Shown here piece after piece: positions 14,288 through 27,847 of a stretch of 63,499 nt of DNA. Each line of letters opens with the position of its first letter. Positions within the stretch are counted from its first letter, which is position 1. The DNA is from an uncultured Candidatus Saccharibacteria bacterium. Lineage in GTDB: Bacteria; Patescibacteriota; Saccharimonadia; Saccharimonadales; AWTP1-31. Position numbers and translations under genes: made by a program. A model generated the notes under the pieces. It did not search any database and was not told the origin of the DNA. It was given only the letters and a program-made list of their open reading frames with translations. Where the stretch lies: assembly GCA_964369045.1 (NCBI GenBank), contig CAYJDY010000001.1, positions 1-63,499 of the forward strand, given 5' to 3'.

Positions 14288-14314
14288 CTGGCACTCTTGA
14301 TGTGCAAGTGCTAG
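14288..14314. promoter_or_regulatory. Degenerate CIRCE-like inverted repeat overlapping the hrcA promoter
   Basis: CTGGCACTC-N9-AAGTGCTAG versus the consensus TTAGCACTC-N9-GAGTGCTAA (7/9 + 7/9). TAGAAT box at 14312..14317, 6 nt before the hrcA ATG. Confidence 0.5.
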
Positions 14315-14323
14315 AATAGGTCT

Positions 14324-15034
14324 ATGTTAACCGACAGACAACAACGAATCCTTCAGGCAATCGTTGAACAGTATGCCGAAGTTGCTAGCCCCGTAGGGTC
14401 TAGCCTGATGGCAAAAGTATTCAACGTTTCGTCAGCAACCATTCGTTCCGAAATGGCAGAGCTGGAACGCCATGGCTTTATCAAGCAACCACATACCAGT
14501 GCCGGACGTATTCCGACCGACAAGGGGTATCGATTTTATGTAAATAATATTGCCGAAAACTCACCGGAGACACCGGCGGAGCGAAGAGCAGAAAAAGCAC
14601 TTGCGAACCGCGTTTCTAGCGGTGGCGTTACCGACCACGTTATCAAGAATGCAGTCGATACGCTTGTTGAACTTACACATAATCTAGGACTGGCTACGAT
14701 TGGTGACCAACTATATATGAGCGGCCTGTCTAATCTTTTTGGACAGCCAGAGTTTATGAATAATGGTCAGGTGCGCGAAGTAGCGAGTTTGCTCGATAAT
14801 CTAGAGCCATGGTTGTATGAAGCTGCACCAAACGAGCCGTTGAGTGTATACATCGGGCAAGAGAATCCAATTGGCAGAAGTGCTGGATGTTCATTGATTG
14901 TAAGCCGATTTCGTAGTAATTACAGTGACCGTAGCTACATAGGTGTACTTGGCCCAACCCGACAGAGCTACAGGGACGTTATGATGCTCGTCCGCCGTAC
15001 TGGCGAAGCACTCGAAGAAGTACTGTATACCTAG
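14324..15034 (+). CDS. hrcA: Heat-inducible transcription repressor HrcA (short, 236 aa)
   Basis: N-terminal winged helix: LTDRQQRILQAIVEQY...ATIRSEMAELERHGFIKQPHTSAGRIPTDKGYRFYV. Confidence 0.9.
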   Translation: MLTDRQQRILQAIVEQYAEVASPVGSSLMAKVFNVSSATIRSEMAELERHGFIKQPHTSAGRIPTDKGYRFYVNNIAENSPETPAERRAEKALANRVSSGGVTDHVIKNAVDTLVELTHNLGLATIGDQLYMSGLSNLFGQPEFMNNGQVREVASLLDNLEPWLYEAAPNEPLSVYIGQENPIGRSAGCSLIVSRFRSNYSDRSYIGVLGPTRQSYRDVMMLVRRTGEALEEVLYT

Positions 15035-15055: not shown

Positions 15056-15538
15056 ATGACTAAAAAAGCCAAAGCAGATGATCAATTCGATGAAGTAAAG
15101 GAGCAGCTTGCTACTGAAGTCGCCCAGCTTACCGAGAGTTTACAGCGCGAGCGTGCCGATGCCATCAATATCCGAAGACGTCATGATGAACAGATCGCTG
15201 GGCTCAAAGGAGTTATAAAAGCGAATGTCATTGAGGAACTATTGCCAGTTATCGATAACTTTGAACGAGCACTCAAACATGTACCTGAAGATCTAGTAGA
15301 CAATGATTATATAAAAGGTGTGCAGGGAGTGGTCAAGCAGTTTGAGTCAACGCTAAGCAGTATGGGTGTACTGCGAATTAATACTATTGGCGAGCCCTTC
15401 GATCCACAAGTACACGAGGCAGTTGGCGTAGAAGAGGGCGATGGCGACCAAGAAGTCGTCAGCGAAGAACTACAGGCTGGCTATCAAATAGGTGACCGCG
15501 TCATCCGTCACGCCATGGTTAAAGTTTCTCGAAAATAG
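15056..15538 (+). CDS. grpE: Nucleotide exchange factor GrpE
   Basis: Coiled N-terminus and LLPVIDNFERAL motif. AAGGAG RBS. Sits directly after hrcA. Confidence 0.9.
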   Translation: MTKKAKADDQFDEVKEQLATEVAQLTESLQRERADAINIRRRHDEQIAGLKGVIKANVIEELLPVIDNFERALKHVPEDLVDNDYIKGVQGVVKQFESTLSSMGVLRINTIGEPFDPQVHEAVGVEEGDGDQEVVSEELQAGYQIGDRVIRHAMVKVSRK

Positions 15539-15553
15539 CATAATCATTTTATA

Positions 15554-15583
15554 TTGACGTTCCTCTCGCTTAGGGCTTATACT
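15554..15583 (+). promoter_or_regulatory. Candidate sigma70-type promoter for the cohesin/dockerin gene cluster
   Basis: TTGACG (15554..15559), 18-nt spacer, TATACT (15578..15583). ATG follows 11 nt later. Confidence 0.45.
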
Positions 15584-15594
15584 TAAAGCAAATT

Positions 15595-16554
15595 ATGCGA
15601 CATGCAATGCGCCCCAGTATTAAACACTTCCTAGTTTACCCAGTTATTATATTGAGTTTAGTCGTAGCATTCTTCCCTGTTAGCCCAGCGCATGTGAGCG
15701 CTGCAGCCTGTACAGCACCATCAACCGATTACGGCACAGTAACTTCATCAGCTACTTCGCAAATATCGATTCCGGCAACAGGTACGTATCGTGTCTGGAG
15801 TAGGATCCAGATTCCAAGCTCAGCAGCAAACTCATATCTGCTGGAGATTGACGGTACATCCTGCTATACCGTTGGTGGTAACACGGCTATGGCAACCAAC
15901 ACCTGGACCTGGGTTGATTATCAGGGTGGCAATACTGCCAGTAAGATCAACGCTACTCTATCTGCAGGTAACCACTCTTACAAGTTAATTGGAAACGCCG
16001 AAGGCGTATTGTTAGACAGAATTATATTCACGCAAGATACGTCTGGCTCGAACTGTAACCCGCCACCAGGAACCGGCGATAATTGTGCGAACCCACCAAA
16101 TGTTGCTCCAACAATCGGTCTCAGTGCCTCTCCTACGAGTGGTACCGCTCCACTGACTACGACACTCACAGCAACCCCAGCAGATTCTGACGGCACAGTT
16201 GCAAGTGTAGAATTCTTTAGGAATGGAACATCTCTTGGAACTGCAAAGACGAGCGCGCCATGGACACTTACACAAACAGGCCTTGCTGCCGGTACATATA
16301 GCTATACCGCCAAGGTAACCGATAATAGTGGAGTTTCTACTACCTCTTCGGCCGTCACAGTGACTGTGACCGGCACGGCAACCCCGAAGGCAGGTGACGT
16401 AAACAATGATGGTGCTGTCAACTCTGGTGACCTTGCAGTTCTGTCGTTCAACTGGCTCAAAACTGGTATGACCAGGGCACAGGGTGATCTGTCTGGTGAC
16501 GGTACGGTTAACTCTGCAGACCTCGCAACACTAAGCTTTAACTGGTTGAAATAA
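15595..16554 (+). CDS. Secreted protein: beta-sandwich (CBM-like) domain, Ig-like domain, C-terminal type-I dockerin
   Basis: Signal peptide ending AHVSAAA. C-terminus GDVNNDGAVNSGDLAVLSFNWLK...GDLSGDGTVNSADLATLSFNWLK forms two Ca-binding dockerin repeats. Confidence 0.75.
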   Translation: MRHAMRPSIKHFLVYPVIILSLVVAFFPVSPAHVSAAACTAPSTDYGTVTSSATSQISIPATGTYRVWSRIQIPSSAANSYLLEIDGTSCYTVGGNTAMATNTWTWVDYQGGNTASKINATLSAGNHSYKLIGNAEGVLLDRIIFTQDTSGSNCNPPPGTGDNCANPPNVAPTIGLSASPTSGTAPLTTTLTATPADSDGTVASVEFFRNGTSLGTAKTSAPWTLTQTGLAAGTYSYTAKVTDNSGVSTTSSAVTVTVTGTATPKAGDVNNDGAVNSGDLAVLSFNWLKTGMTRAQGDLSGDGTVNSADLATLSFNWLK

Positions 16555-16568
16555 TTGGATACAAGAAA

Positions 16569-17894
16569 ATGACAAATAAACTGAAGACAACTAACAAGAA
16601 AACCAAAAGTATCATCATAGTAACTGCGCTATTTGCCGTCATTGGCGCAGGTATACTTATCTTTGCCAATGCTGCTACGGGTACCGCTACACTCTCACTG
16701 ACCCCTAACAGTGGTAGCTACGATATCTCGTCCAACTTTACACTGGGTATCTATGCAAACTCAGGCACTACTGCTGCGAGCACCGTGGACGTTAAGCTGA
16801 GCTATGATGCGACCAAGCTTGATTATGTATCAGTCGACGGAACTGGCGGAGCATTCACGACTTGTACTGAGAACAGTGGAGGAGCTGGAACGGTAAGCCT
16901 CGTGTGTGCTCTTCTTGGTAACTCTGTGAGCGGCAATCAAAAGGTCGGTAATGTTACCTTTAAAGCCAAAGTTGGCACGGGGACAACCCCGGTTAGTTTT
17001 GCAGCTGGTTCACATATTTGGTCTTATGCTGCTAGCCCTGTTGATTTGTGGAATGGCGTGACAACGGGTGGTACATACACACTGACAACACCTGATACAA
17101 CACCGCCATCGGTGACCATTACAGCACCGTCAGTATCGGGTTCAACAGTATCAGGCAATGCGGTACCGCTTCAGGCAAACGTCACCGATAGTGCCGGAAC
17201 GATCACAAGAGTAGAGTTTGTTGTCAATGGAGTTGTTAAGGACACCAAAACATCAGGCACAAGCCCTTATTCATATACATGGGACTCGACAACTCTGCCT
17301 GACGGTACGTACCCAGTTGTTGTCAATGCCTGGGATAATGCCCCAACACCGAACAAGGGAACAGCCACTACGAGCGTAGTAGTTAAGAATAGTAAACCAA
17401 ACCTCGTGGTATCTGGCCTAACTATAACACCAGCAGCCCCTACCCCGGGCAGTGTGGTGACATTTAGCGCAACGGTTACCAATAACGGTACCGCTGCCAC
17501 TACAGCCGGAACCTCAGTTGTGACAGGTTTCTCGGTAGACTCGGTAGCGATCACTTCACCCGCAGCTGACACTGCGTCACTCGCAGTTGGGGCTAGTCGT
17601 GTAGTAACGGCAACCTGGACAGCTACACTTGGGTCACATACCGTTGTGGCAACAGCAGACAAGAACAACACAGTTATCGAACTCAACGAGACTGATAACA
17701 CGAGATCACAAAGCTTCTCGGCATATAAACCGGGTGATGCTAACAATGATAACCTTGTTAACTCCGGTGACCTAGCAGTTATATCCTTTAACTGGCTCAA
17801 GACAGGCATGACATTTGCTCAGGGCGACTTCAATGGAGATGGTACAATAAACTCTGCAGACCTCGCAACACTAAGCTTTAACTGGTTGAAATAA
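16569..17894 (+). CDS. Secreted protein: cohesin-like N-domain, Ig-like domain, CARDB-like domain, C-terminal dockerin
   Basis: Signal-anchor. VDVKLSYDATKLDYVSVDG block is cohesin-like. PNLVVSGLTITPAAPTPGSVVTFSATVTNNG is CARDB-like. Dockerin repeats GDANNDNLVNSGDLAVISFNWLK and GDFNGDGTINSADLATLSFNWLK. Confidence 0.7.
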   Translation: MTNKLKTTNKKTKSIIIVTALFAVIGAGILIFANAATGTATLSLTPNSGSYDISSNFTLGIYANSGTTAASTVDVKLSYDATKLDYVSVDGTGGAFTTCTENSGGAGTVSLVCALLGNSVSGNQKVGNVTFKAKVGTGTTPVSFAAGSHIWSYAASPVDLWNGVTTGGTYTLTTPDTTPPSVTITAPSVSGSTVSGNAVPLQANVTDSAGTITRVEFVVNGVVKDTKTSGTSPYSYTWDSTTLPDGTYPVVVNAWDNAPTPNKGTATTSVVVKNSKPNLVVSGLTITPAAPTPGSVVTFSATVTNNGTAATTAGTSVVTGFSVDSVAITSPAADTASLAVGASRVVTATWTATLGSHTVVATADKNNTVIELNETDNTRSQSFSAYKPGDANNDNLVNSGDLAVISFNWLKTGMTFAQGDFNGDGTINSADLATLSFNWLK

Positions 17895-17908
17895 TTGGAT
17901 ACAAGAAA

Positions 17909-19198
17909 ATGACACATAAACTAAAAACACTCAATAAAAAAAATAAAACTGCACTAGTTGTCACTGCGCTATTTGCCGTCATTGGCGCAGGTATACTCAT
18001 CTTTGCCAATGCAGCCACACCTCCGCAAACAGGAACAGTCACGACATTAGCTGGCGGGAATGTTGGCTTCAGTCTATCGCCTGCAAGTGGAACATTCGGT
18101 GCTTCAACGAATGTTGCTGGAACGATTAATGTAAATGCTGGAACCTCTGAAATAAGTACGGTAGATGTGAAGCTAAGTTATGACACAACAAAACTGGATT
18201 TTGTATCTATCGACGGAAGTGGCGGAGCATTCTCTACCTGTACTGAAAACAGTGGTGGTGGTGGCACGGCAAGCTTGGTATGTACTAAGCTTGGCGGCTC
18301 GGTGAATGGTACTCAAAAGGTTGGCAACGTTACATTCAAAACCAAGACAGTTGCAGGTGCAGCTTCCGTAAGTTTTGCAGGAAGCTCACACGTATGGTCA
18401 TACGCCGCATCACCAGCAGATCTATGGAATGGTGTAGCTACAGCTGCAACCTATACAGTATCTATTCCGTCTAGCGGTGGAGGTGGTGGTGGAGGCACTG
18501 GTGGTTCAGGTGGAACACCGACTACTCCAACAACAACCACCACTCCAAAGACCACAACTGGTGGATCATCAACTCCAACAACAACCACTACTCCAAAGAC
18601 CACAACTGGTGGATCATCAACTCCTACTACCACGGCGCCTACTGCTGCCGGTACCGAGAACGTGACAACAACTACATCTGGCGGTCAGGTTATTGTAAAA
18701 CTCGTCGACGACAAAGGTGCACCCCTTACAGGTATTAGCGTGTCTCTTGGAACACTTTCTGCGATCACTGATTCCTATGGTCTCGCCAACTTTTCTGGTG
18801 TAGTTGCCGGTACGTATACAGTGTCAGCTAAAACCGACAAAGGTCAGGCAAAGGTTAAGATTCAAGTTAAAGCAGATAGCCCAACAACCGCACAACAATT
18901 CCAACTCCAGGTTAAGCCAAAATCAATGATCATACTCTATGTTGTCATAGCAGTCGGTGTCATTGCAGCAGTAGTTGCAGGTGGTGTGGCCTTTGTACGA
19001 CAGCAGAGAAAGAGTAAGTTCAACCGTTCACATGGTCTCGGTAACTCAGCAGTCATCTTCGATGCCAACTCGTCAGCACCAAGTCCCGTGGAGCAAGCAC
19101 CAATCATTGCGCCACAACCACCAGCAACAAAAGGACCAGAGGGTAGCATCATTACCCCTTCGGCAGAAGCTCCAAAATCAGACGATACCCCTTCGTAG
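17909..19198 (+). CDS. Membrane-anchored cohesin-like protein with Gly/Thr/Pro linker and CarboxypepD_reg-like domain
   Basis: N-terminus paralogous to 16569. VDVKLSYDTTKLDFVSIDG cohesin-like block. GGGGGGTGGSGG and TTTTPKTTTGGSS repeats. C-terminal TM helix IILYVVIAVGVIAAVVAGGVAFV followed by RQQRKSK. Confidence 0.7.
   Translation: MTHKLKTLNKKNKTALVVTALFAVIGAGILIFANAATPPQTGTVTTLAGGNVGFSLSPASGTFGASTNVAGTINVNAGTSEISTVDVKLSYDTTKLDFVSIDGSGGAFSTCTENSGGGGTASLVCTKLGGSVNGTQKVGNVTFKTKTVAGAASVSFAGSSHVWSYAASPADLWNGVATAATYTVSIPSSGGGGGGGTGGSGGTPTTPTTTTTPKTTTGGSSTPTTTTTPKTTTGGSSTPTTTAPTAAGTENVTTTTSGGQVIVKLVDDKGAPLTGISVSLGTLSAITDSYGLANFSGVVAGTYTVSAKTDKGQAKVKIQVKADSPTTAQQFQLQVKPKSMIILYVVIAVGVIAAVVAGGVAFVRQQRKSKFNRSHGLGNSAVIFDANSSAPSPVEQAPIIAPQPPATKGPEGSIITPSAEAPKSDDTPS
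18524..18619 (+). repeat. 2 x 48-nt in-frame tandem repeat (TPTTTTTPKTTTGGSS) in the linker
   Basis: 18524..18571 and 18572..18619 differ at 1 nt. Confidence 0.9.
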
Positions 19199-19204
19199 AA
19201 ATGA

Positions 19205-19510
19205 ATGAAAAGTACCAGCAGATCAGACATAACTGTTCCTGACAGGATCATCTATTCACAGATGTTCTTGTTCCTGCAGTCACGTAGTCAGGGTATCGAG
19301 GGACAGCGGTTAAAATCATTCGGTGCATTTCTTATCTGGTTTGCATTATCAGGACTCAATATGTGGCTACTCAGTTTGATTCTTTCTCCTAAGTTAGCAC
19401 TACCTCTCATGATCTTAGTTGTGTTCGTATTCTTTGTTTGTCCGTTTGTGTTATTGTGGCCGGTTGTCGCCACGACTATCGTTCGTGCAGACCTCGAACG
19501 TCTTAAATAA
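19205..19510 (+). CDS. Hypothetical small membrane protein
   Basis: Two predicted TM helices. Start uncertain. No motif recognised. Confidence 0.35.
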   Translation: MKSTSRSDITVPDRIIYSQMFLFLQSRSQGIEGQRLKSFGAFLIWFALSGLNMWLLSLILSPKLALPLMILVVFVFFVCPFVLLWPVVATTIVRADLERLK

Positions 19511-19537
19511 TTAGCACTCAAAGTACTTGAGTGCTAA
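19511..19537. promoter_or_regulatory. Perfect CIRCE operator (HrcA binding site) overlapping the dnaK-operon promoter
   Basis: TTAGCACTC-AAAGTACTT-GAGTGCTAA. Candidate -35 TTGAGT (19526..19531) and -10 TACAAT (19548..19553). An extra TTAGCACTC half-site at 19559..19567. Confidence 0.9.
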
Positions 19538-19596
19538 TTATTTTATGCTACAATTGTATTAGCACTCTAACAGTGCAATTGCCAGAAAGGGAGCCT

Positions 19597-19857
19597 ATGC
19601 AGGCCGTTGAAATGCCTGAGATAATACGTGGAATAACCGAATTCGACGAAGGAGTTCATGTATCAACTGGACGTTATCCTGCTCTTGGTGAAGGGGTCGA
19701 AGTCGTAGAAGTGATGCATGCTTATAAGCTTGCTCATCTCGGAGACAGATGGCCTGTATTCACGAGGCTAATAAGCAAAGAATTGTTAGAGCAAAGGAGG
19801 CTAGATTACTCTAGTGATCCAGAAACATTTAAAGAAGAACATCTAAGAAATTTATAG
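19597..19857 (+). CDS. Hypothetical 86-aa protein, first gene of the CIRCE-controlled dnaK operon
   Basis: ATG at 19597 with AAGGGAG upstream. The listed longer ORF would start inside the CIRCE/promoter. No motif recognised. Confidence 0.5.
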
Positions 19858-19867
19858 GAGAAGTAAA

Positions 19868-21778
19868 ATGGGGAAAATAATTGGAATTGATCTAGGAACA
19901 ACAAACTCAGCTATGGCTGTAATGCAATCAGGAAAGCCTGAAATTATTGCGAACTCAGAAGGAGCCCGAACAACGCCTAGTGTTGTTGCTCTAAACAAAA
20001 ACGGCGAACGACTCGTTGGCCAGGTTGCAAGACGCCAAATGGTGACTAATCCAAGCAACACGATTTATGAAGTAAAACGACTTATCGGACGAAGCTGGGA
20101 AGATAAGGAAGTACAACGCGATATCAAGCTCATGGGTTACGAAATGGTCAAGAGCGGTAAAAGCGTCAAGGTAAAAATGGGTGACAAAGAATACAGCCCA
20201 GAAGAAATTAGCGCTATGATCCTCAGCAAACTAAAGGCCGACGCAGAAGCCTTTACTGGCGGTCCTGTAACCGAAGCGGTTATTACAGTTCCGGCGTATT
20301 TCGATGACTCACAACGACAAGCAACTAAAGATGCTGGTAAAATTGCCGGACTAGAAGTGAAGCGTATTATTAACGAACCAACGGCGGCTGCTCTTGCGTA
20401 TGGCTTGGATAAAGGTAGCAAGAAAGACGAAAAGATCGCTGTATTCGACCTTGGTGGTGGAACGTTTGACGTATCGATCCTCGAGCTTGGTGATGGTGTT
20501 TTCGAAGTAAAAAGTACAAATGGTGATACGCACCTTGGTGGTGCTGACTTCGATCGTGTCATCGTGAATTACCTCGTAGAAGAGTTCAAAAAAGACAGTG
20601 GTGTGAACGTTATTGATGACAAAGCTGCTATGCAACGACTCCGTGACGAGGCTGAAAAAGCTAAGATCGAACTGTCAACTACCAACGAAGTAGACATTAA
20701 CCTACCGTTTCTTACAGCTGATGCAGATGGTCCAAAACACTTTGAGCACAAGCTGAGTCGCGCGAAGCTGGAAAGCTTGGTTGCTGACCTTATCGATAAG
20801 ACTGCTATTCCATGCGAAAAGGCGCTTAAGGACGCGAAGCTTAAGAGCAGTGATATTGATGCAGTTGTACTCGTCGGTGGTATGACGCGTATGCCTGCTG
20901 TTGTCGAGAAGGTTAAAAAGATATTTGGTCGTGATCCAATGCAGGGTGTGAACCCTGACGAAGTTGTGGCGATCGGTGCAGCAATCCAGGGTGGAGTATT
21001 GCAAGGTGACGTCAAAGACGTATTACTACTTGATGTTACCCCACTCAGTCTTGGTATCGAGACGCTCGGCGGAGTTGCAACTAAGCTGATCGAGCGAAAT
21101 ACAACCATTCCAAGCAGTAAGAGCGAAGTATTTAGTACGGCGGCCGATAATCAGAACCAAGTAGAAATCCATGTTGTACAAGGTGAGCGTGAGTTTGTGA
21201 ACGATAACAAGAGCCTAGGCCGATTCGTGCTCGACGGTATTCCTCCAGCACCACGTGGTGTTCCTCAGGTCGAAGTCACCTTTAACCTCGACGCTAACGG
21301 AATCTTGAACGTTTCTGCTAAGGACAAAGGTTCTGGCAAAGAACAGAGCATTACCATTCAAGGTAGCAGTGGCCTGAGCAAAGAAGAAGTCGAGAAGATG
21401 GCCAAAGAAGCTGAAGCTCATGCCGAAGAGGACAAGCTAAAGCGTGAGAGTATCGAAGCTCGCAACCAACTAGACAGTGCAATCTACCAAGCTGACAAGA
21501 TGAAGTCTGATAACAAAGACAAGATTAGTGAGGATGATGTTAAGAAAATCGATGAAGCAGTAGAGTCTGCAAAGAAAGTTGTTGCCGACGAAAAGGCAGA
21601 CAAAGAGACACTCGAAAAAGCAGCAAAGGAACTGACCGAAGCCATTATGCCAATCGGCGCTAAGATGTACGAAGAAGCAGCAAAAGCTGAAGGTGCTGAA
21701 GCTGAGGCTGGTGAGAAAAAAGCCGATGAGCCAGTCGAAGGTGAAGTTGTCGACGAAGACACTAAGAAAGAGGACTAA
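19868..21778 (+). CDS. dnaK: Molecular chaperone DnaK (Hsp70)
   Basis: [18 protein letters not shown] and [10 protein letters not shown] signatures. AGGAG RBS. Confidence 0.98.
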
Positions 21779-23746: not shown

Positions 23747-26700
23747 CTAAAGTTGGCCAGTAACTTCGGTGAAAGCGTCTTGGTAGGTTTTTACAGCTAT
23801 ACCACTGGATTGTATTGCAGTAAGGTGTTCGGCAAAGATATTTGTGTAGGTATCATATGGGCCTGGATCGCTGGCGATTCGGTGATAGACCAGAATAAGC
23901 CATGTGTTGTCTGCCTTGGCTTGCTCTATCCAAATTTTAACCTGGTTGGCAGATGTTGTGTCGAGTACATTCTGTACACGCAGTCTGTATGGGTCAAAGT
24001 TGTCCTTGCTGTTATAGCCTTCGTCTACCGTTCGGTGTGATTGATAGTACGTCTTGATGGCGTTGTTGACGGTGGCGTTATAGTCACCATAAGGAGAAGC
24101 GAAGTTTAATACTGGCTGCCCTATGATGCTCTCAAGGTACTGCTTCGAATGCTGCAACTCATAGTTCAGTGTGACTGGATCGAGTGTGGTCATGAATGGA
24201 TGTGTAACGGTGTGTGAACATATTTCATGGCCACTATTCTTGAACTTCAGGATATCACTAACTGCCTGGGCGTTTCCTTCGATGAAGGTTGTCGCATAAC
24301 ACTGCGTAGACTTGAAGCCGTACTGGTTGAGTAGTGGCAATGCAGTCGTAACGTTGTCTTCGTGTCCATCGTCAAATGTCATAGACAATAGTGGTCGGTT
24401 AAAACCAGTCGGCTTGTATTCGGTAATACTGTAGTCGTCAGTCTGAATCCATCCGTTTTGGTTGGCATACATGAACACCGATACGCTCACTGCATCGAGG
24501 GGGACACTAAAGGTGTCTGAGTATTGTTGCCAGTTACCACTCCCATTTGGTTGTGCTGCAGGCATACCAAAGTATTGCTCTGTACCATCGGCACGGATAA
24601 ACATAGCTACTGGATGAGGCACTATGTTTGTTTTGTACCAAGCGTTGAATCTGTATTGTTTGCCAGGCGTTAAGGTCTTGATAGGGTCGAAGAACCACTT
24701 TGCATCACCGTCGGTGTAATTACTGACAGTTACCTTCAGGCTCTTTGATCCAGTGTGCCCATCGTTGGTGACATATTGGAAGGCTGATGTGTTTGTACCC
24801 CATGAACCACTCTGCCAGCCAGTTGGCAGCATTGTGCCCGTTTCGACTGAACCATTTGGAATGACAATATCAGCAGTAGGGGTTGGAGGTGTCGCAACCT
24901 GCATGTAAGCATCATCAATGGTGAGCGAACCGATGCTATCGATAAGGTGGAATACAGTCGCCTTGACTGCGCCGGTTGGGGCGGTGAAGCTACCTTGATA
25001 CTGTGCCCAAGTATTTGCTGTTGGCGCACCGCCAAGCTCTAGATAAGTATAGGCGCCGTTTGCATCAATAAATGCTACAACTACTCGTGTTGGTACGGTT
25101 GATTTGTAGTAGTCACGGTAAAGGTAGCTCTTGCCAGCCAGTACCGATGTGGGATCGAAGTACCATTTTGCATCACCATCAGTAATTGCGGTTACCTTTG
25201 CTGTGACGCTACGGCTACCTGTTCGAGCACCACTAGAGTCGTAGGAAAAGCTTACGGTATTGGTTCCCCATTTGTTTGAAGACCAGACACTTGGCTTGGC
25301 ACTGTTTGCTGGATCAACGGTTTCTACCGATGGATTGGCTATAACGTTCTCGTTATCAATTGGCGGAACGACAGGGTTGTTTACAGTTACAGTTACGGCA
25401 GAAGAGGTAGCAGTCAGGCTGTTACTACTTCTAACCACAGCAGTTAGCGAATGACTGGCGTTAGTAGCAGCCAAGGTGTCCCAAGATACTTCATAAGGAG
25501 CAGTCGTATCCTCAGTGCCAAGGTTGACACCGTCTACCTTGAACTGGACGCCTGCAACACTAGCACCAGAGCTGGCAGCCGTGGCTGCGATATTCTTAGT
25601 ACCGCTGATTGATGCATTGTTAACAGGATCAGAAATGCTAACCGTAGGTGCGACAGGGTTATTAACGGTAACCGTTAATGGGGTAGAAGTCGTGCTCAAA
25701 CCATTTGTACTCCTTACATCAGCAGTAAGTATATGTGATGCATTGGTGGTAAGGGTAGTGTCCCAGGTTACCTCGTATGGTGCTGTTGTATCTTCGGCAC
25801 CAAGGTTGACACCGTCTACCTTGAACTGGACGCCTGCAACACTAGCACCAGAGCTGGCAGCGTTGGCGGTGATTTTTTGTTGCCCTGTAACTGTCGCGTT
25901 GGCGGATGGTGCCACGATACTCACCGTTGGAGTGACAGGAGCAACAGGGTTGCTGACCGTTACGGTTCGGGCGGCAGATGTAGTGCTGAGCCCGTTGGAA
26001 CTGCGCACCACAGCCGTAATATTGTGCGTAGCGTTGGTTGCCAACTTTGTATCCCAAGATGTCTCATATGGTGCTGTTGTATCCTCAGAACCAAGGTTGA
26101 TGCCGTCAACTTTGAACTGAACCCCTGCAACACTGGCACCAGAGCTGGCAGCCGTGGCAGTGATCGTTTGTGTACCAGCGACGATTCCATTGGTAGTAGG
26201 CTTCGTAATACTTACTGTTGGCGCCACCGCAACGGGAGGTGCGGTAGATGTTAGGCCGAAGAATACGTCGTCGGTCTGGAGCCAGCCAACTTTATTGATA
26301 ACATGGAAGATAGTTGCTGTTTTGGCGTTTGTAGGCATTGTGAGCGTTCCAGAAGTCTGAACCCACGATGCTGATTTAGCAGGACTCTTGATCGATTTGT
26401 AAGAAAGCGCACCAGTTGTACTGGTGATCTCAGCAACAATCTCGGTCGCTACGGTTGATTTGTAATAGGTACTATATGTATAGCTTTGTCCCGGAGTAAC
26501 GGTAACAGGCTTAAAATACCATTTTGCGTCACCACTCGAGCGGGTATTCATAGTTGTTTTGACGCTTTTCTGGCCAGTCATTGCGTCATTGGTTACGTAC
26601 TGGAATGATGCAGTATTTGTGCCCCACTGGTCAGTTAACCAGTCTTGCGGGCTCGTTGTTGGAGAGCCTGCAGTCTCTACGGAAGGGTTAGAAACGAGGT

Positions 26701-26803
26701 TGGTTCCAACGGCGACGACCTTCACGAGAGGTATAAGGGGCACAGCCATGAGAATAAAGGCCAAAAATACGAGTAATAACTTCTTCAAACTAGACATATG
26801 CAT
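23747..26803 (-). CDS. Large secreted polysaccharide deacetylase: 3 CBM4/9-like modules, 3 tandem Ig-like repeats, C-terminal NodB domain
   Basis: Signal peptide. NodB motifs TFDDG and HTVTHP near the C-terminus. Repeated GDAKWYF beta-sandwich modules. GGAGG lies 6 nt before the second ATG (26797), so the start may be 26797. Confidence 0.85.
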   Translation of the reverse strand: MHMSSLKKLLLVFLAFILMAVPLIPLVKVVAVGTNLVSNPSVETAGSPTTSPQDWLTDQWGTNTASFQYVTNDAMTGQKSVKTTMNTRSSGDAKWYFKPVTVTPGQSYTYSTYYKSTVATEIVAEITSTTGALSYKSIKSPAKSASWVQTSGTLTMPTNAKTATIFHVINKVGWLQTDDVFFGLTSTAPPVAVAPTVSITKPTTNGIVAGTQTITATAASSGASVAGVQFKVDGINLGSEDTTAPYETSWDTKLATNATHNITAVVRSSNGLSTTSAARTVTVSNPVAPVTPTVSIVAPSANATVTGQQKITANAASSGASVAGVQFKVDGVNLGAEDTTAPYEVTWDTTLTTNASHILTADVRSTNGLSTTSTPLTVTVNNPVAPTVSISDPVNNASISGTKNIAATAASSGASVAGVQFKVDGVNLGTEDTTAPYEVSWDTLAATNASHSLTAVVRSSNSLTATSSAVTVTVNNPVVPPIDNENVIANPSVETVDPANSAKPSVWSSNKWGTNTVSFSYDSSGARTGSRSVTAKVTAITDGDAKWYFDPTSVLAGKSYLYRDYYKSTVPTRVVVAFIDANGAYTYLELGGAPTANTWAQYQGSFTAPTGAVKATVFHLIDSIGSLTIDDAYMQVATPPTPTADIVIPNGSVETGTMLPTGWQSGSWGTNTSAFQYVTNDGHTGSKSLKVTVSNYTDGDAKWFFDPIKTLTPGKQYRFNAWYKTNIVPHPVAMFIRADGTEQYFGMPAAQPNGSGNWQQYSDTFSVPLDAVSVSVFMYANQNGWIQTDDYSITEYKPTGFNRPLLSMTFDDGHEDNVTTALPLLNQYGFKSTQCYATTFIEGNAQAVSDILKFKNSGHEICSHTVTHPFMTTLDPVTLNYELQHSKQYLESIIGQPVLNFASPYGDYNATVNNAIKTYYQSHRTVDEGYNSKDNFDPYRLRVQNVLDTTSANQVKIWIEQAKADNTWLILVYHRIASDPGPYDTYTNIFAEHLTAIQSSGIAVKTYQDAFTEVTGQL
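25373..26221 (-). repeat. Three in-frame tandem repeats of about 280-290 nt (Ig-like domains) inside the deacetylase gene
   Basis: Protein repeats ...SSGASVAGVQFKVDG(I/V)NLG.EDTTAPYE..WDT... occur 3 times. The identical DNA stretch caaggttgacaccgtctaccttgaactggacgcctgcaacactagcaccagagctggcagc occurs at about 25520 and about 25802. Confidence 0.9.
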
Positions 26804-27250: not shown

Positions 27251-27847
27251 ATGAAGACGAATAAAAAACTATTTTCTGTTGGACTCCTAGCCTGCCTCAT
27301 AGGTCTTGCAGGGCTTATTCCAAGTTTCTATTTTTGGTATCAGACCAAGCAGATTACGCATGTTGCGGCACAAGGCGCCGGCGAAACGGTCACCAAGCCT
27401 ACCGTAGTCCAGGTCCCAGCGGTCGTTACTGGTAAACCAGCTCAGCTCGTTATTCCGTCACTCAACCTTAATCTACACATTGAGGACGGTGTTTTTAATC
27501 CTCGTACTGGACAGTGGACATTATCAAACAACAATGTGCACTATGCGCTCATTACTGTCCAACCAAATGATAAGCGGGGAAATACGCTCATATATGGGCA
27601 CTACCGACCTGGCGTTTTCTCAACGCTAAAGTCTATCAAGCCAGGTGAGCTGGTTGAGGTTAGGACTGAAAACGGACTGGTATTCACATATCGTTTTACA
27701 AGCAGTCAGGTCGTAAGTCCTGCAGATGGATCAATCTTCGATTACACTGGCAAACCAATGCTAACGCTCCAAACCTGCACAGGCACATTTATGCAGAATC
27801 GACAATTCTTCCATTTTGACTTTGTAAGCGTATCAGAAGTTAATTAG
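27251..27847 (+). CDS. Sortase (membrane-anchored transpeptidase)
   Basis: N-terminal TM helix, catalytic His in LIYGHY, TLQTC active-site Cys motif, downstream Arg in QNRQF. Confidence 0.85.
   Translation: MKTNKKLFSVGLLACLIGLAGLIPSFYFWYQTKQITHVAAQGAGETVTKPTVVQVPAVVTGKPAQLVIPSLNLNLHIEDGVFNPRTGQWTLSNNNVHYALITVQPNDKRGNTLIYGHYRPGVFSTLKSIKPGELVEVRTENGLVFTYRFTSSQVVSPADGSIFDYTGKPMLTLQTCTGTFMQNRQFFHFDFVSVSEVN

Follow-up and report, generated by a model that had tools for sequence, protein, structure and literature searches.

Between the heat-shock genes grpE and dnaK of an uncultured Candidatus Saccharibacteria bacterium lies a cassette of three genes whose products appear to be complementary parts of a cohesin-dockerin system: a secreted, lectin-like cargo protein (Gene 1, g1), a secreted adaptor (g2) and a membrane anchor (g3). 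The whole stretch of DNA analysed, 63.5 kb long, is called the window below; related loci carry L numbers and representative homologous proteins carry P numbers. The three open reading frames (ORFs) occupy 15595-16554, 16569-17894 and 17909-19198 on the plus strand, exactly where an initial annotation made from the sequence alone had placed them; they encode 319, 441 and 429 aa, and gene calling done independently on the source contig gives the same three. The spacers between g1 and g2 and between g2 and g3 are 14 nt each and have the same sequence, and the packing is operon-like. The genes run in the order gmk, an unknown ORF, hrcA (14324-15034), grpE (15056-15538), g1, g2, g3, two small ORFs, dnaK (19868-21778) and dnaJ, with a CIRCE operator (controlling inverted repeat of chaperone expression) between cassette and dnaK, so that the heat-shock location given in the initial annotation is correct. 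The reduced genome it assumed is also in accord with the affiliation of the locus: the window DnaK shares as much as 93% identity with DnaK from Candidatus Saccharibacteria/Saccharimonadales metagenome-assembled genomes, and the best 80 loci are almost all from that phylum.

Recognition of a cohesin-dockerin system here turns on the N-terminal domains of g2 (residues ~37-175; 16677-17093) and g3 (residues ~49-187; 18053-18469). The Pfam cohesin family, PF00963, matches neither protein even at E<=1, and NCBIfam gives no cohesin match to either; single-sequence phmmer searches of the PDB with these domains reached E=0.2-0.7 only, with every match a cohesin. With so weak a direct signal, the case had to be made from a family profile and a structure model. 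An exhaustive HMMER search of representative proteins with a three-sequence profile (an earlier word-index search had given one protein only) delineates a family of 2,901 representative proteins at E<=1e-3, of which 872 reach E<=1e-10; some have 2-9 copies of the domain. The g3 domain matches the family hidden Markov model (HMM) at E=7.7e-48 and is 63% identical to that of g2 by BLASTP. Close relatives, defined by E<1e-22 to the domain profile, number 116; PF00963 recognizes 65 of them (best 1.3e-29), and CarboxypepD_reg is found in 45 and Dockerin_1 in 11. Among the direct orthologues of g3, those of L003 (31.1 bits) and L011 (30 bits) exceed the PF00963 cut-off of 24.1 bits. When a 33-sequence domain profile was run against the PDB, 13 of 14 matches were cohesins; the best, 6KGC (CaCohA2), matched over its full length at E=1.1e-5, and the others included CipC (1G1K/2VN5), the NagJ cohesin, ScaB (1QZN) and related entries.

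The structure model agrees. AlphaFold2 (AF2) predicts g2 residues 40-175 with a per-residue confidence (predicted local distance difference test, pLDDT) above 90, and the top 42 Foldseek matches of this model in the PDB are all cohesins: 2VN5 at E=8e-9, template-modelling (TM) scores normalized to the target (TM-target) of 0.73-0.79, and superpositions with a root-mean-square deviation of 2.4-2.7 Å over ~147 columns, among them the non-cellulosomal Archaeoglobus fulgidus cohesin 2XDH. The predicted g2 fold is the nine-stranded flattened β-jelly-roll of the family, superimposable on solved cohesins. By profile and model, then, the N-terminal domains of g2 and g3 are divergent but genuine cohesins, whose membership in the Pfam family comes by transitive homology. 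The initial annotation had named an HMM search as the check on its cohesin call. Applied literally to g2 and g3 that check fails, but relatives, profile and predicted structure all return a cohesin.

The dockerins are easier to see. Dockerin_1 (PF00404; cut-off 22.9 bits) matches g1 residues 266-313 at 41.3 bits and g2 residues 388-435 at 35.2 bits; the modules lie at 16381-16551 and 17721-17891 and are 84% identical to each other (BLASTP, 46/55). Each is a duplicated ~22-residue EF-hand-like Ca2+ loop followed by a helix, with segments DVNNDGAVNSGDL and DLSGDGTVNSADL in g1 and DANNDNLVNSGDL and DFNGDGTINSADL in g2. All four segments have D, N or S at positions 1, 3, 5, 9 and 12 (one with S at position 3); the duplicated motif D-x-N-x-D-G-x-V-N-x-x-D-L, as originally described, is approximately right, although three of the four segments differ from it at one position. 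The g1 dockerin is modelled by AF2 with pLDDT 86-93 and helices at 277-285 and 307-317. A strict Ca-loop regular expression applied to the six-frame translation of the window picks up a single loop per dockerin and none elsewhere, and a dockerin HMM run over all window ORFs likewise returns g1 and g2 only; the suggested search for further dockerin-bearing proteins, carried out at the scale of the 63.5-kb window, thus adds no third.

Cohesin and dockerin of g2 are separated by two spacer domains, Big_7 (PF17957; residues 180-251, 58.4 bits, E=1.2e-15) and CARDB (PF07705; residues 276-380, 56.1 bits, E=4.7e-15), which together span 17106-17708 and exceed their Pfam cut-offs; the four modules first proposed for this protein all stand, three by Pfam and the cohesin by profile, AF2 and Foldseek. 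In g1 the domain next to the dockerin (16111-16374; residues 173-259 in the AF2 model) is Ig-like, of Big_7/PKD-like type: Big_7 matches above its cut-off (37.1 bits, E=4.9e-9), and Foldseek aligns it with FN3, PKD and Ig modules at TM scores of 0.75-0.83. The g1 N-terminus has a hydrophobic segment at residues 12-30 followed by VSA|AAC, and after this putative signal peptide comes a β-sandwich (residues ~39-165; 15709-16089) with four conserved Cys, an NTWTW motif and pLDDT of 77-88 over residues 55-147. A profile of this domain run against the PDB matches 2WZ8 (E=0.0025), 2VZP (E=0.015) and 1UXZ (E=0.11), which we take to be carbohydrate-binding modules (CBMs) of families 35 and 6. Among the relatives, GH115_C, a CBM-like β-sandwich, is matched by P0181 at 24.4 bits (cut-off 24.1), and CBM_35 by one protein at E=0.088. 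Homologues often consist of just this domain and a dockerin, ~200 aa in all. Of the modules first ascribed to g1, the Ig-like domain and the dockerin are confirmed by Pfam, whereas the carbohydrate-binding part, CBM6/35-like, is marginal at E=0.0025. Pfam finds no catalytic domain in g1 or g2. A lipoprotein anchor for g1 was considered and set aside: the conserved Cys lies at a variable distance after the AxA site, with no consistent lipobox across homologues.

The layout of g3 is that of a surface anchor. Its leader is nearly identical to that of g2 and ends in ANA|A; other secreted proteins of the clade have endings of the AxA|AT type. Beyond the cohesin comes a Thr/Gly/Pro-rich linker (18470-18685; 31 T, 18 G and 8 P in 76 residues), which holds a 48-bp tandem repeat (x2.1, 18524-18624, 98% identical) encoding TPTTTTTPKTTTGGSS. 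In P0002, a strain variant of 413 aa that is otherwise nearly the same, 16 aa (48 nt) are missing, as expected if it had one repeat copy less; the length of the stalk may be polymorphic between strains. A membrane-proximal β-domain of ~75 residues (18686-18913) follows, and then a transmembrane helix (residues 340-358/362; Kyte-Doolittle score 2.84) and a basic, Pro-rich cytoplasmic tail of ~66 aa (18926-19195). The β-domain is CarboxypepD_reg-like (PF13620) by way of its orthologues: that of L003 passes the cut-off of 32.3 bits with 40.1 bits, and those of L004 and L001 are sub-threshold. Run alone against Pfam, g3 has non-significant matches only, none of them to PF13620, the best for the β-domain being Ig_DR_A0283-like at E=0.0074. 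All g3 orthologues share this layout, and g3 is predicted to be a type I membrane protein presenting one cohesin on a flexible stalk. Of the modules named for it in the initial annotation, linker and membrane helix are upheld in g3 itself and the cohesin through orthologues above cut-off; CarboxypepD_reg is a likeness, seen above cut-off in the L003 orthologue. A sortase gene is present in the window at 27251-27847, though the g3 anchor is a transmembrane helix and not an LPXTG motif.

The DNA of the cassette carries a trace of its own history. A direct repeat of 286 nt (80% identity) occurs on the plus strand at 16393-16678, covering the g1 dockerin end, the spacer and the start of g2, and again with a period of 1340 nt at 17733-18018, covering the g2 dockerin end, the spacer and the start of g3. 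Each copy thus begins in the 3' end of a dockerin, takes in the stop codon, the 14-nt spacer and the next start codon with its leader, and passes into homology that extends through the cohesin; two blocks are perfectly identical, one of ~70 nt that spans the spacer with the stop and start codons on either side, and one of ~50 nt. The middle of g2 has a likeness elsewhere: its Big_7-CARDB segment aligns with that of a g1-like protein in L003 (30% identity, E=8e-17), which has the same Big_7-CARDB-dockerin arrangement as g2. Most likely, g2 is a chimera: in an ancestor with two genes only, a dockerin cargo followed by a cohesin anchor, a tandem duplication would have spanned the junction between them. 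An origin of this kind would give g2 a cohesin and a dockerin matching those of its neighbours. The identical blocks also point to ongoing gene conversion, which alone could explain part of the similarity within a genome.

Such matching is found in each genome that carries the set. The g2 and g3 cohesins are 63-79% identical within a genome, compared with 40-59% for orthologues across genomes; for the g1 and g2 dockerins the figures are 78-93% and 43-68%. The pattern is not uniform along the domains. In cohesin strand β3 the paralogues of any one genome agree at 100% of positions, whereas identity between genomes is 46%; β5, β6 and β8' behave in the same way, and β1 and β2 do not. Strands 8-3-6-5 reportedly form the dockerin-binding face in solved type I complexes, according to Carvalho et al. 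2003. The dockerins were compared by half-site, four each from the window, L004 and L011 and two (from g2) from L048, and here the helix after the Ca loop shifts in step: NSGDLAVLSF or NSADLATLSF in the window, NIYDASILSL or NIYDASILSI in L004, GSADLAIIAF in L011, DTKDAVILSL in L048. The differences between genomes fall at positions 10, 11, 13, 14, 17 and 18, which include the classical type I recognition positions; read as positions 10/11 and 17/18, the residues are SG or SA with SF in the window, IY with SL or SI in L004, SA with AF in L011 (SE in one half-site), and TK with SL in L048. Within each dockerin the two half-sites are nearly identical, which matches the symmetry of type I dockerins with a dual binding mode. 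Variation between genomes is thus concentrated on the interface strands and helix positions, with scaffold positions conserved, and this is the pattern that a cohesin-dockerin specificity shared within each lineage would be expected to produce.

Comparison of gene neighborhoods, using a sample of 80 related dnaK loci (L001-L080, almost all from Saccharibacteria), extends the picture in two directions. In most loci with a detectable grpE (~50 other Saccharibacteria) the grpE-dnaK spacer is 14-700 nt only; homologues of the cassette occupy it only in the closest relatives. All three genes are found in L004 and L011, g2 and g3 in L048 (at a contig end), and a two-gene version lacking the adaptor in L001 and L003. 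Away from the heat-shock genes, L082, beside mur genes, has a CBM-like gene with a dockerin followed directly by a gene for cohesin, linker, β-domain and transmembrane helix; in L090 (3169-5615) and L091 (3217-5624) a dockerin-bearing gene lies directly upstream of a cohesin gene. L086 (1525-8645) is larger, with a two-cohesin protein, an adaptor of the form cohesin-Big_7x2-dockerin, a further cohesin protein directly after the adaptor and, nearby, a dockerin-bearing Pel9A-like β-helix enzyme. The two-gene core, dockerin protein followed by cohesin anchor, therefore recurs at unrelated genomic sites. A metagenome scan with g2 found two distant loci only and no extra cassettes. The largest array of cohesins seen, 9 copies, is in P0021 (2276 aa); to judge from these sequences, scaffoldin-like systems of several sizes exist in a largely uncharacterised cohesin family.

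The second direction concerns the spacer itself, which in other lineages holds other inserts: GH16 with Big_7 and two fn3 domains in L002, proteins of ~1100 aa with GH16 and BNR in L065 and L076, a GDSL protein of 1097 aa in L072 and a GH71 protein in L070; L004 and L011 have a secreted GH114 as well, placed after g3. In Saccharibacteria this spacer seems to be a hot spot for the insertion of genes for secreted, glycan-directed proteins.

Signals for expression are less clear at the upstream end than at the downstream one. The initial annotation gave the set its own promoter, and a consensus match, TTGACG-18-TATACT, is indeed present on the plus strand at 15554-15583 within the 56-nt grpE-g1 spacer, with the top score of the region (10/12); but the promoter scan of the region as a whole shows no enrichment over shuffles, and no terminator-like site was found in the scan between grpE and g1, so that read-through from hrcA-grpE into the cassette is possible. 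The downstream boundary is a perfect CIRCE operator, TTAGCACTC-N9-GAGTGCTAA, at 19511-19537 on the plus strand (no mismatches; 0.03 expected by chance), which overlaps a promoter-like site at 19527-19554, ~330 nt upstream of dnaK. It can be read as an HrcA-controlled promoter belonging to dnaK itself, 3' of the cassette. Of the 80 relatives, 56 have a CIRCE ahead of dnaK, at a median distance of 60 nt, and in every insert-bearing relative with a CIRCE match it lies between the insert and dnaK.

Other features of the neighborhood may be recorded here. A degenerate CIRCE-like inverted repeat, CTGGCACTC-N9-AAGTGCTAG, with 4 mismatches and spotted by eye, at 14288-14314, overlaps a promoter-like site upstream of hrcA; hrcA itself is short, at 236 aa. 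Directly 3' of g3 is a 101-aa ORF (19205-19510) with two predicted transmembrane segments, to which the source-contig gene caller gives 82 aa, and between CIRCE and dnaK is an 86-aa ORF at 19597-19857 (ORF span 19531-19857). Neither small ORF has a tblastn match in the 80 related loci; lacking conservation, they are not counted as parts of the cassette. On the minus strand at 23747-26803, 4.5 kb downstream of the cassette, a gene encodes a secreted 1018-aa protein with three Big_7 domains, CBM_4_9 and a polysaccharide deacetylase domain, and no dockerin. The cassette has no megablast match to plasmids.

Taken together, the cassette probably encodes a non-cellulosomal cohesin-dockerin assembly on the saccharibacterial surface, with g3 as anchor, g2 as adaptor and g1 as lectin-like cargo, serving attachment to a glycan or a host. 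The division of labor had been proposed in the initial annotation; its module assignments hold, and synteny, recurring gene pairs and co-variation strengthen it, while physical binding, stoichiometry, leader cleavage, glycan binding and host attachment are all inferred. In such an assembly g3 would be exported, its leader cleaved at ANA|A, and held in the membrane by the C-terminal helix; the CarboxypepD_reg-like domain and the ~70-residue Thr/Gly/Pro linker would lift its single cohesin off the membrane. Secreted g1 would offer a non-enzymatic CBM6/35-like lectin module on an Ig-like spacer, ending in the dockerin. Secreted g2 would carry a cohesin of the g3 type and a dockerin of the g1 type, with the Big_7 and CARDB spacers between. 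Ca2+-dependent binding of dockerin to cohesin could then yield g3:g1, g3:g2:g1 or longer g3:(g2)n:g1 stalks; as g1 has no cohesin, it would be the distal cap and the ligand-binding tip. The likely purpose would be to attach to a glycan, whether carried by a host bacterium or by environmental polymer. A bolder version, which we regard as doubtful, makes g2 a homotypic adaptor, with a dockerin that recognizes cohesins of the type g2 itself carries, so that a non-covalent, pilus-like fibre of variable length, g3-(g2)n-g1, with a recognition code that drifts between lineages, would let the ultrasmall epibiont find and grip host glycans. Were this so, bacteria of the Candidate Phyla Radiation (CPR) would have a host-attachment organelle of a new class, derived from a single tandem duplication of a two-gene system.

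Several observations weigh against the surface-assembly reading. The PF00963 model is blind to both cohesins of the cassette, and the match of the g1 N-domain to CBMs is marginal; a Foldseek search with the g1 model is dominated by the Ig-like domain and gives no clean CBM match for the N-domain. In the full-length AF2 model of g2 the dockerin has a pLDDT of ~35 and the middle domains 30-50, which is uninformative on docking. The g1 orthologue of L001 (7373-8320) has at its end a duplicated helix pair (KVDLDDLLAVINHW / KVNLDDLLEVLNNW) without canonical DxNxDG Ca loops, which both dockerin HMMs miss and which could be a dockerin variant that has degenerated or does not depend on Ca. Identity between the g2 and g3 cohesins of the window falls into blocks, with low values in β1-β2 and high ones starting at β3, and the perfectly identical blocks of ~70 and ~50 nt mean that gene conversion or recent duplication, and not selection for shared specificity, could account for the similarity within a genome. 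Finally, dockerin proteins encoded elsewhere in the genome, enzymes included, may compete for the cohesins, as the dockerin-bearing Pel9A-like enzyme of L086 illustrates.

That last point leads to an account in which the cassette is a small cellulosome: the g2 and g3 cohesins would mainly recruit dockerin-bearing hydrolases or lyases encoded elsewhere, with g1 as no more than a substrate-targeting CBM, and the system would serve polysaccharide degradation and feeding in place of attachment as such. In its favor are the L086 cluster, the secreted GH114 after g3 in L004 and L011, the GH16, GH71 or GDSL proteins in the same spacer of other lineages, and the secreted CBM_4_9 and deacetylase protein 4.5 kb away in the window; a ‘simple, two-subunit cellulosome’ with proposed attachment and degradation has been annotated in one soil saccharibacterial genome (PMC6031116). 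Against it, no enzyme with a dockerin was found in the window, and the dockerin HMM matches neither the GH114s of L004 and L011 nor the deacetylase of the window. The conserved partners that co-vary with the cohesins, g1 and g2, have no catalytic domain, and with one cohesin per protein little multiplexing of enzymes would be possible. We consider this account unlikely. If, on the other hand, the modules do not interact at all, the three genes would encode independent surface proteins, their cohesin-like and dockerin-like modules serving as generic β-sandwich spacers and as Ca2+- or glycan-binding adhesin modules, and adjacency and similarity would reflect local duplication and gene conversion only. 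For many non-cellulosomal dockerins we know of no cohesin partner, and giant Omnitrophota proteins carry dockerins that are read as adhesins; the direct repeats with their identical blocks attest to recent duplication or conversion, and the silence of the Pfam cohesin model fits as well. Yet local duplication in one lineage does not explain why dockerin and cohesin genes are adjacent in unrelated contexts and divergent lineages, nor why variation between genomes falls on the strands and helix positions of the canonical interface, with the scaffold conserved; the predicted cohesin fold is, moreover, canonical. Independence of the three proteins is on this balance improbable.

Location raises another idea, that of an envelope-stress module under heat-shock control, co-transcribed with hrcA-grpE and remodelling or protecting the surface under stress. 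It would be suggested by the position between grpE and dnaK, by the lack of a terminator-like site before g1 and by the degenerate CIRCE at the hrcA promoter-like site. The link to heat shock looks incidental, and is judged unlikely: the same spacer holds unrelated secreted enzymes in other lineages, as expected of an insertion hot spot, and beyond the cassette dnaK still has a perfect CIRCE and a promoter of its own. The cassette is found only in the closest relatives, and also away from heat-shock genes, in L082. Of the explanations considered, regulation as a stress module is the least credible.

A surface assembly of g1, g2 and g3 bears on the question of how ultrasmall CPR and saccharibacterial cells recognise and hold their hosts or substrates. 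Saccharibacteria are epibionts. For attachment in CPR bacteria, Saccharibacteria included, a role has been ascribed to type IV pili and to a small number of adhesins, one of them the essential dockerin-domain protein of Southlakia. The compact three-gene set is tractable, since its four cohesin-dockerin pairs and one lectin-like domain could be expressed directly. It also illustrates on a small scale how one tandem duplication in a cohesin/dockerin gene pair can give rise to an adaptor scaffoldin, and presents a case in which the interface residues of both partners co-vary between closely related genomes. If the binding is real, cohesin-dockerin assembly would be extended from the organisation of enzymes to the display of lectins in reduced genomes, and the lineages would supply small orthogonal cohesin-dockerin pairs for protein engineering.

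Set beside known systems, the cassette shares its architecture with the clostridial anchoring and adaptor scaffoldins (for instance ScaB/ScaA of Acetivibrio cellulolyticus, ScaC/ScaE of Ruminococcus flavefaciens, OlpC/SdbA of C. thermocellum). Both use the same cohesin (PF00963 fold) and a type I-like dockerin (PF00404), with structural matches at TM scores of 0.7-0.79, and both have the hierarchy of a cell-bound cohesin, an adaptor with cohesin and dockerin, and a dockerin-bearing cargo. Unlike those scaffoldins, the cassette has no enzyme cargo in the window, dockerins being confined to g1 and g2, neither with a catalytic domain; g2 and g3 have one cohesin each in place of arrays, and no CBM3 match. 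The anchor of g3 is a C-terminal transmembrane helix with a cytoplasmic tail instead of surface-layer homology (SLH) repeats or a sortase LPXTG motif; no SLH Pfam match and no LPXTG is present in g3. Known adaptors switch specificity between their two ends, whereas cohesin and dockerin of g2 apparently belong to one specificity group, and the organism is of a CPR epibiont lineage and not a cellulolytic Firmicute. The cassette therefore resembles the cellulosomal hierarchy of anchor, adaptor and cargo, fails the defining features of a cellulosome that were tested, and belongs with the non-cellulosomal cohesin-dockerin systems. The absence of glycoside hydrolase cargo, noted in the initial annotation, is true of the window, but does not extend to the related cluster L086 with its dockerin-bearing Pel9A-like enzyme.

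Non-cellulosomal systems of this kind have reportedly been surveyed by Peer et al. 2009, as cited in PMC10066038. NagJ/NagH of Clostridium perfringens (2OZN, 2JH2) and the cohesin of A. fulgidus (2XDH) are likewise cohesin/dockerin systems outside plant-cell-wall degradation; some of the proteins have the two modules together, as g2 does, and the cohesins of both are among the sequence or structure matches of the cassette. The C. perfringens modules are borne on large glycoside hydrolase toxins, where the cassette has a small lectin-like cargo and an integral membrane protein as anchor, and the A. fulgidus proteins are not arranged as an operon of anchor, adaptor and lectin.

Nearer comparisons come from within the phylum, and they make the novelty implied by the initial annotation smaller, since non-cellulosomal systems are known and a two-subunit cellulosome has already been annotated there (PMC6031116); no published description of the three-gene form, its co-variation or its origin by duplication was found in the literature, and assemblies of this known type have received little study in Saccharibacteria. 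In Southlakia epibionticum, Wang et al. 2023 found by transposon sequencing (Tn-seq) that a dockerin-domain envelope protein, SEML1_0315, is essential for epibiotic growth, and speculated that it targets host glycans (PMC10633639). Compared by description only, it is a saccharibacterial surface dockerin protein like g1 and g2; no cohesin partner is reported there, and Southlakia is host-associated (oral), whereas the cassette is from an environmental lineage. Another published counterpart is the ‘simple, two-subunit cellulosome’ of the soil bacterium Candidatus Teamsevenus rhizospherense, for which Starr et al. 2018 proposed a part in attachment (PMC6031116); it is an annotation only, and was read as cellulose-degrading. 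Again compared by description only, that pair appears to be the same two-gene core as in L001, L003 and L082, and relative to it the cassette adds a third gene for a homotypic adaptor, a non-catalytic cargo, and the evidence of co-variation and of origin by duplication.

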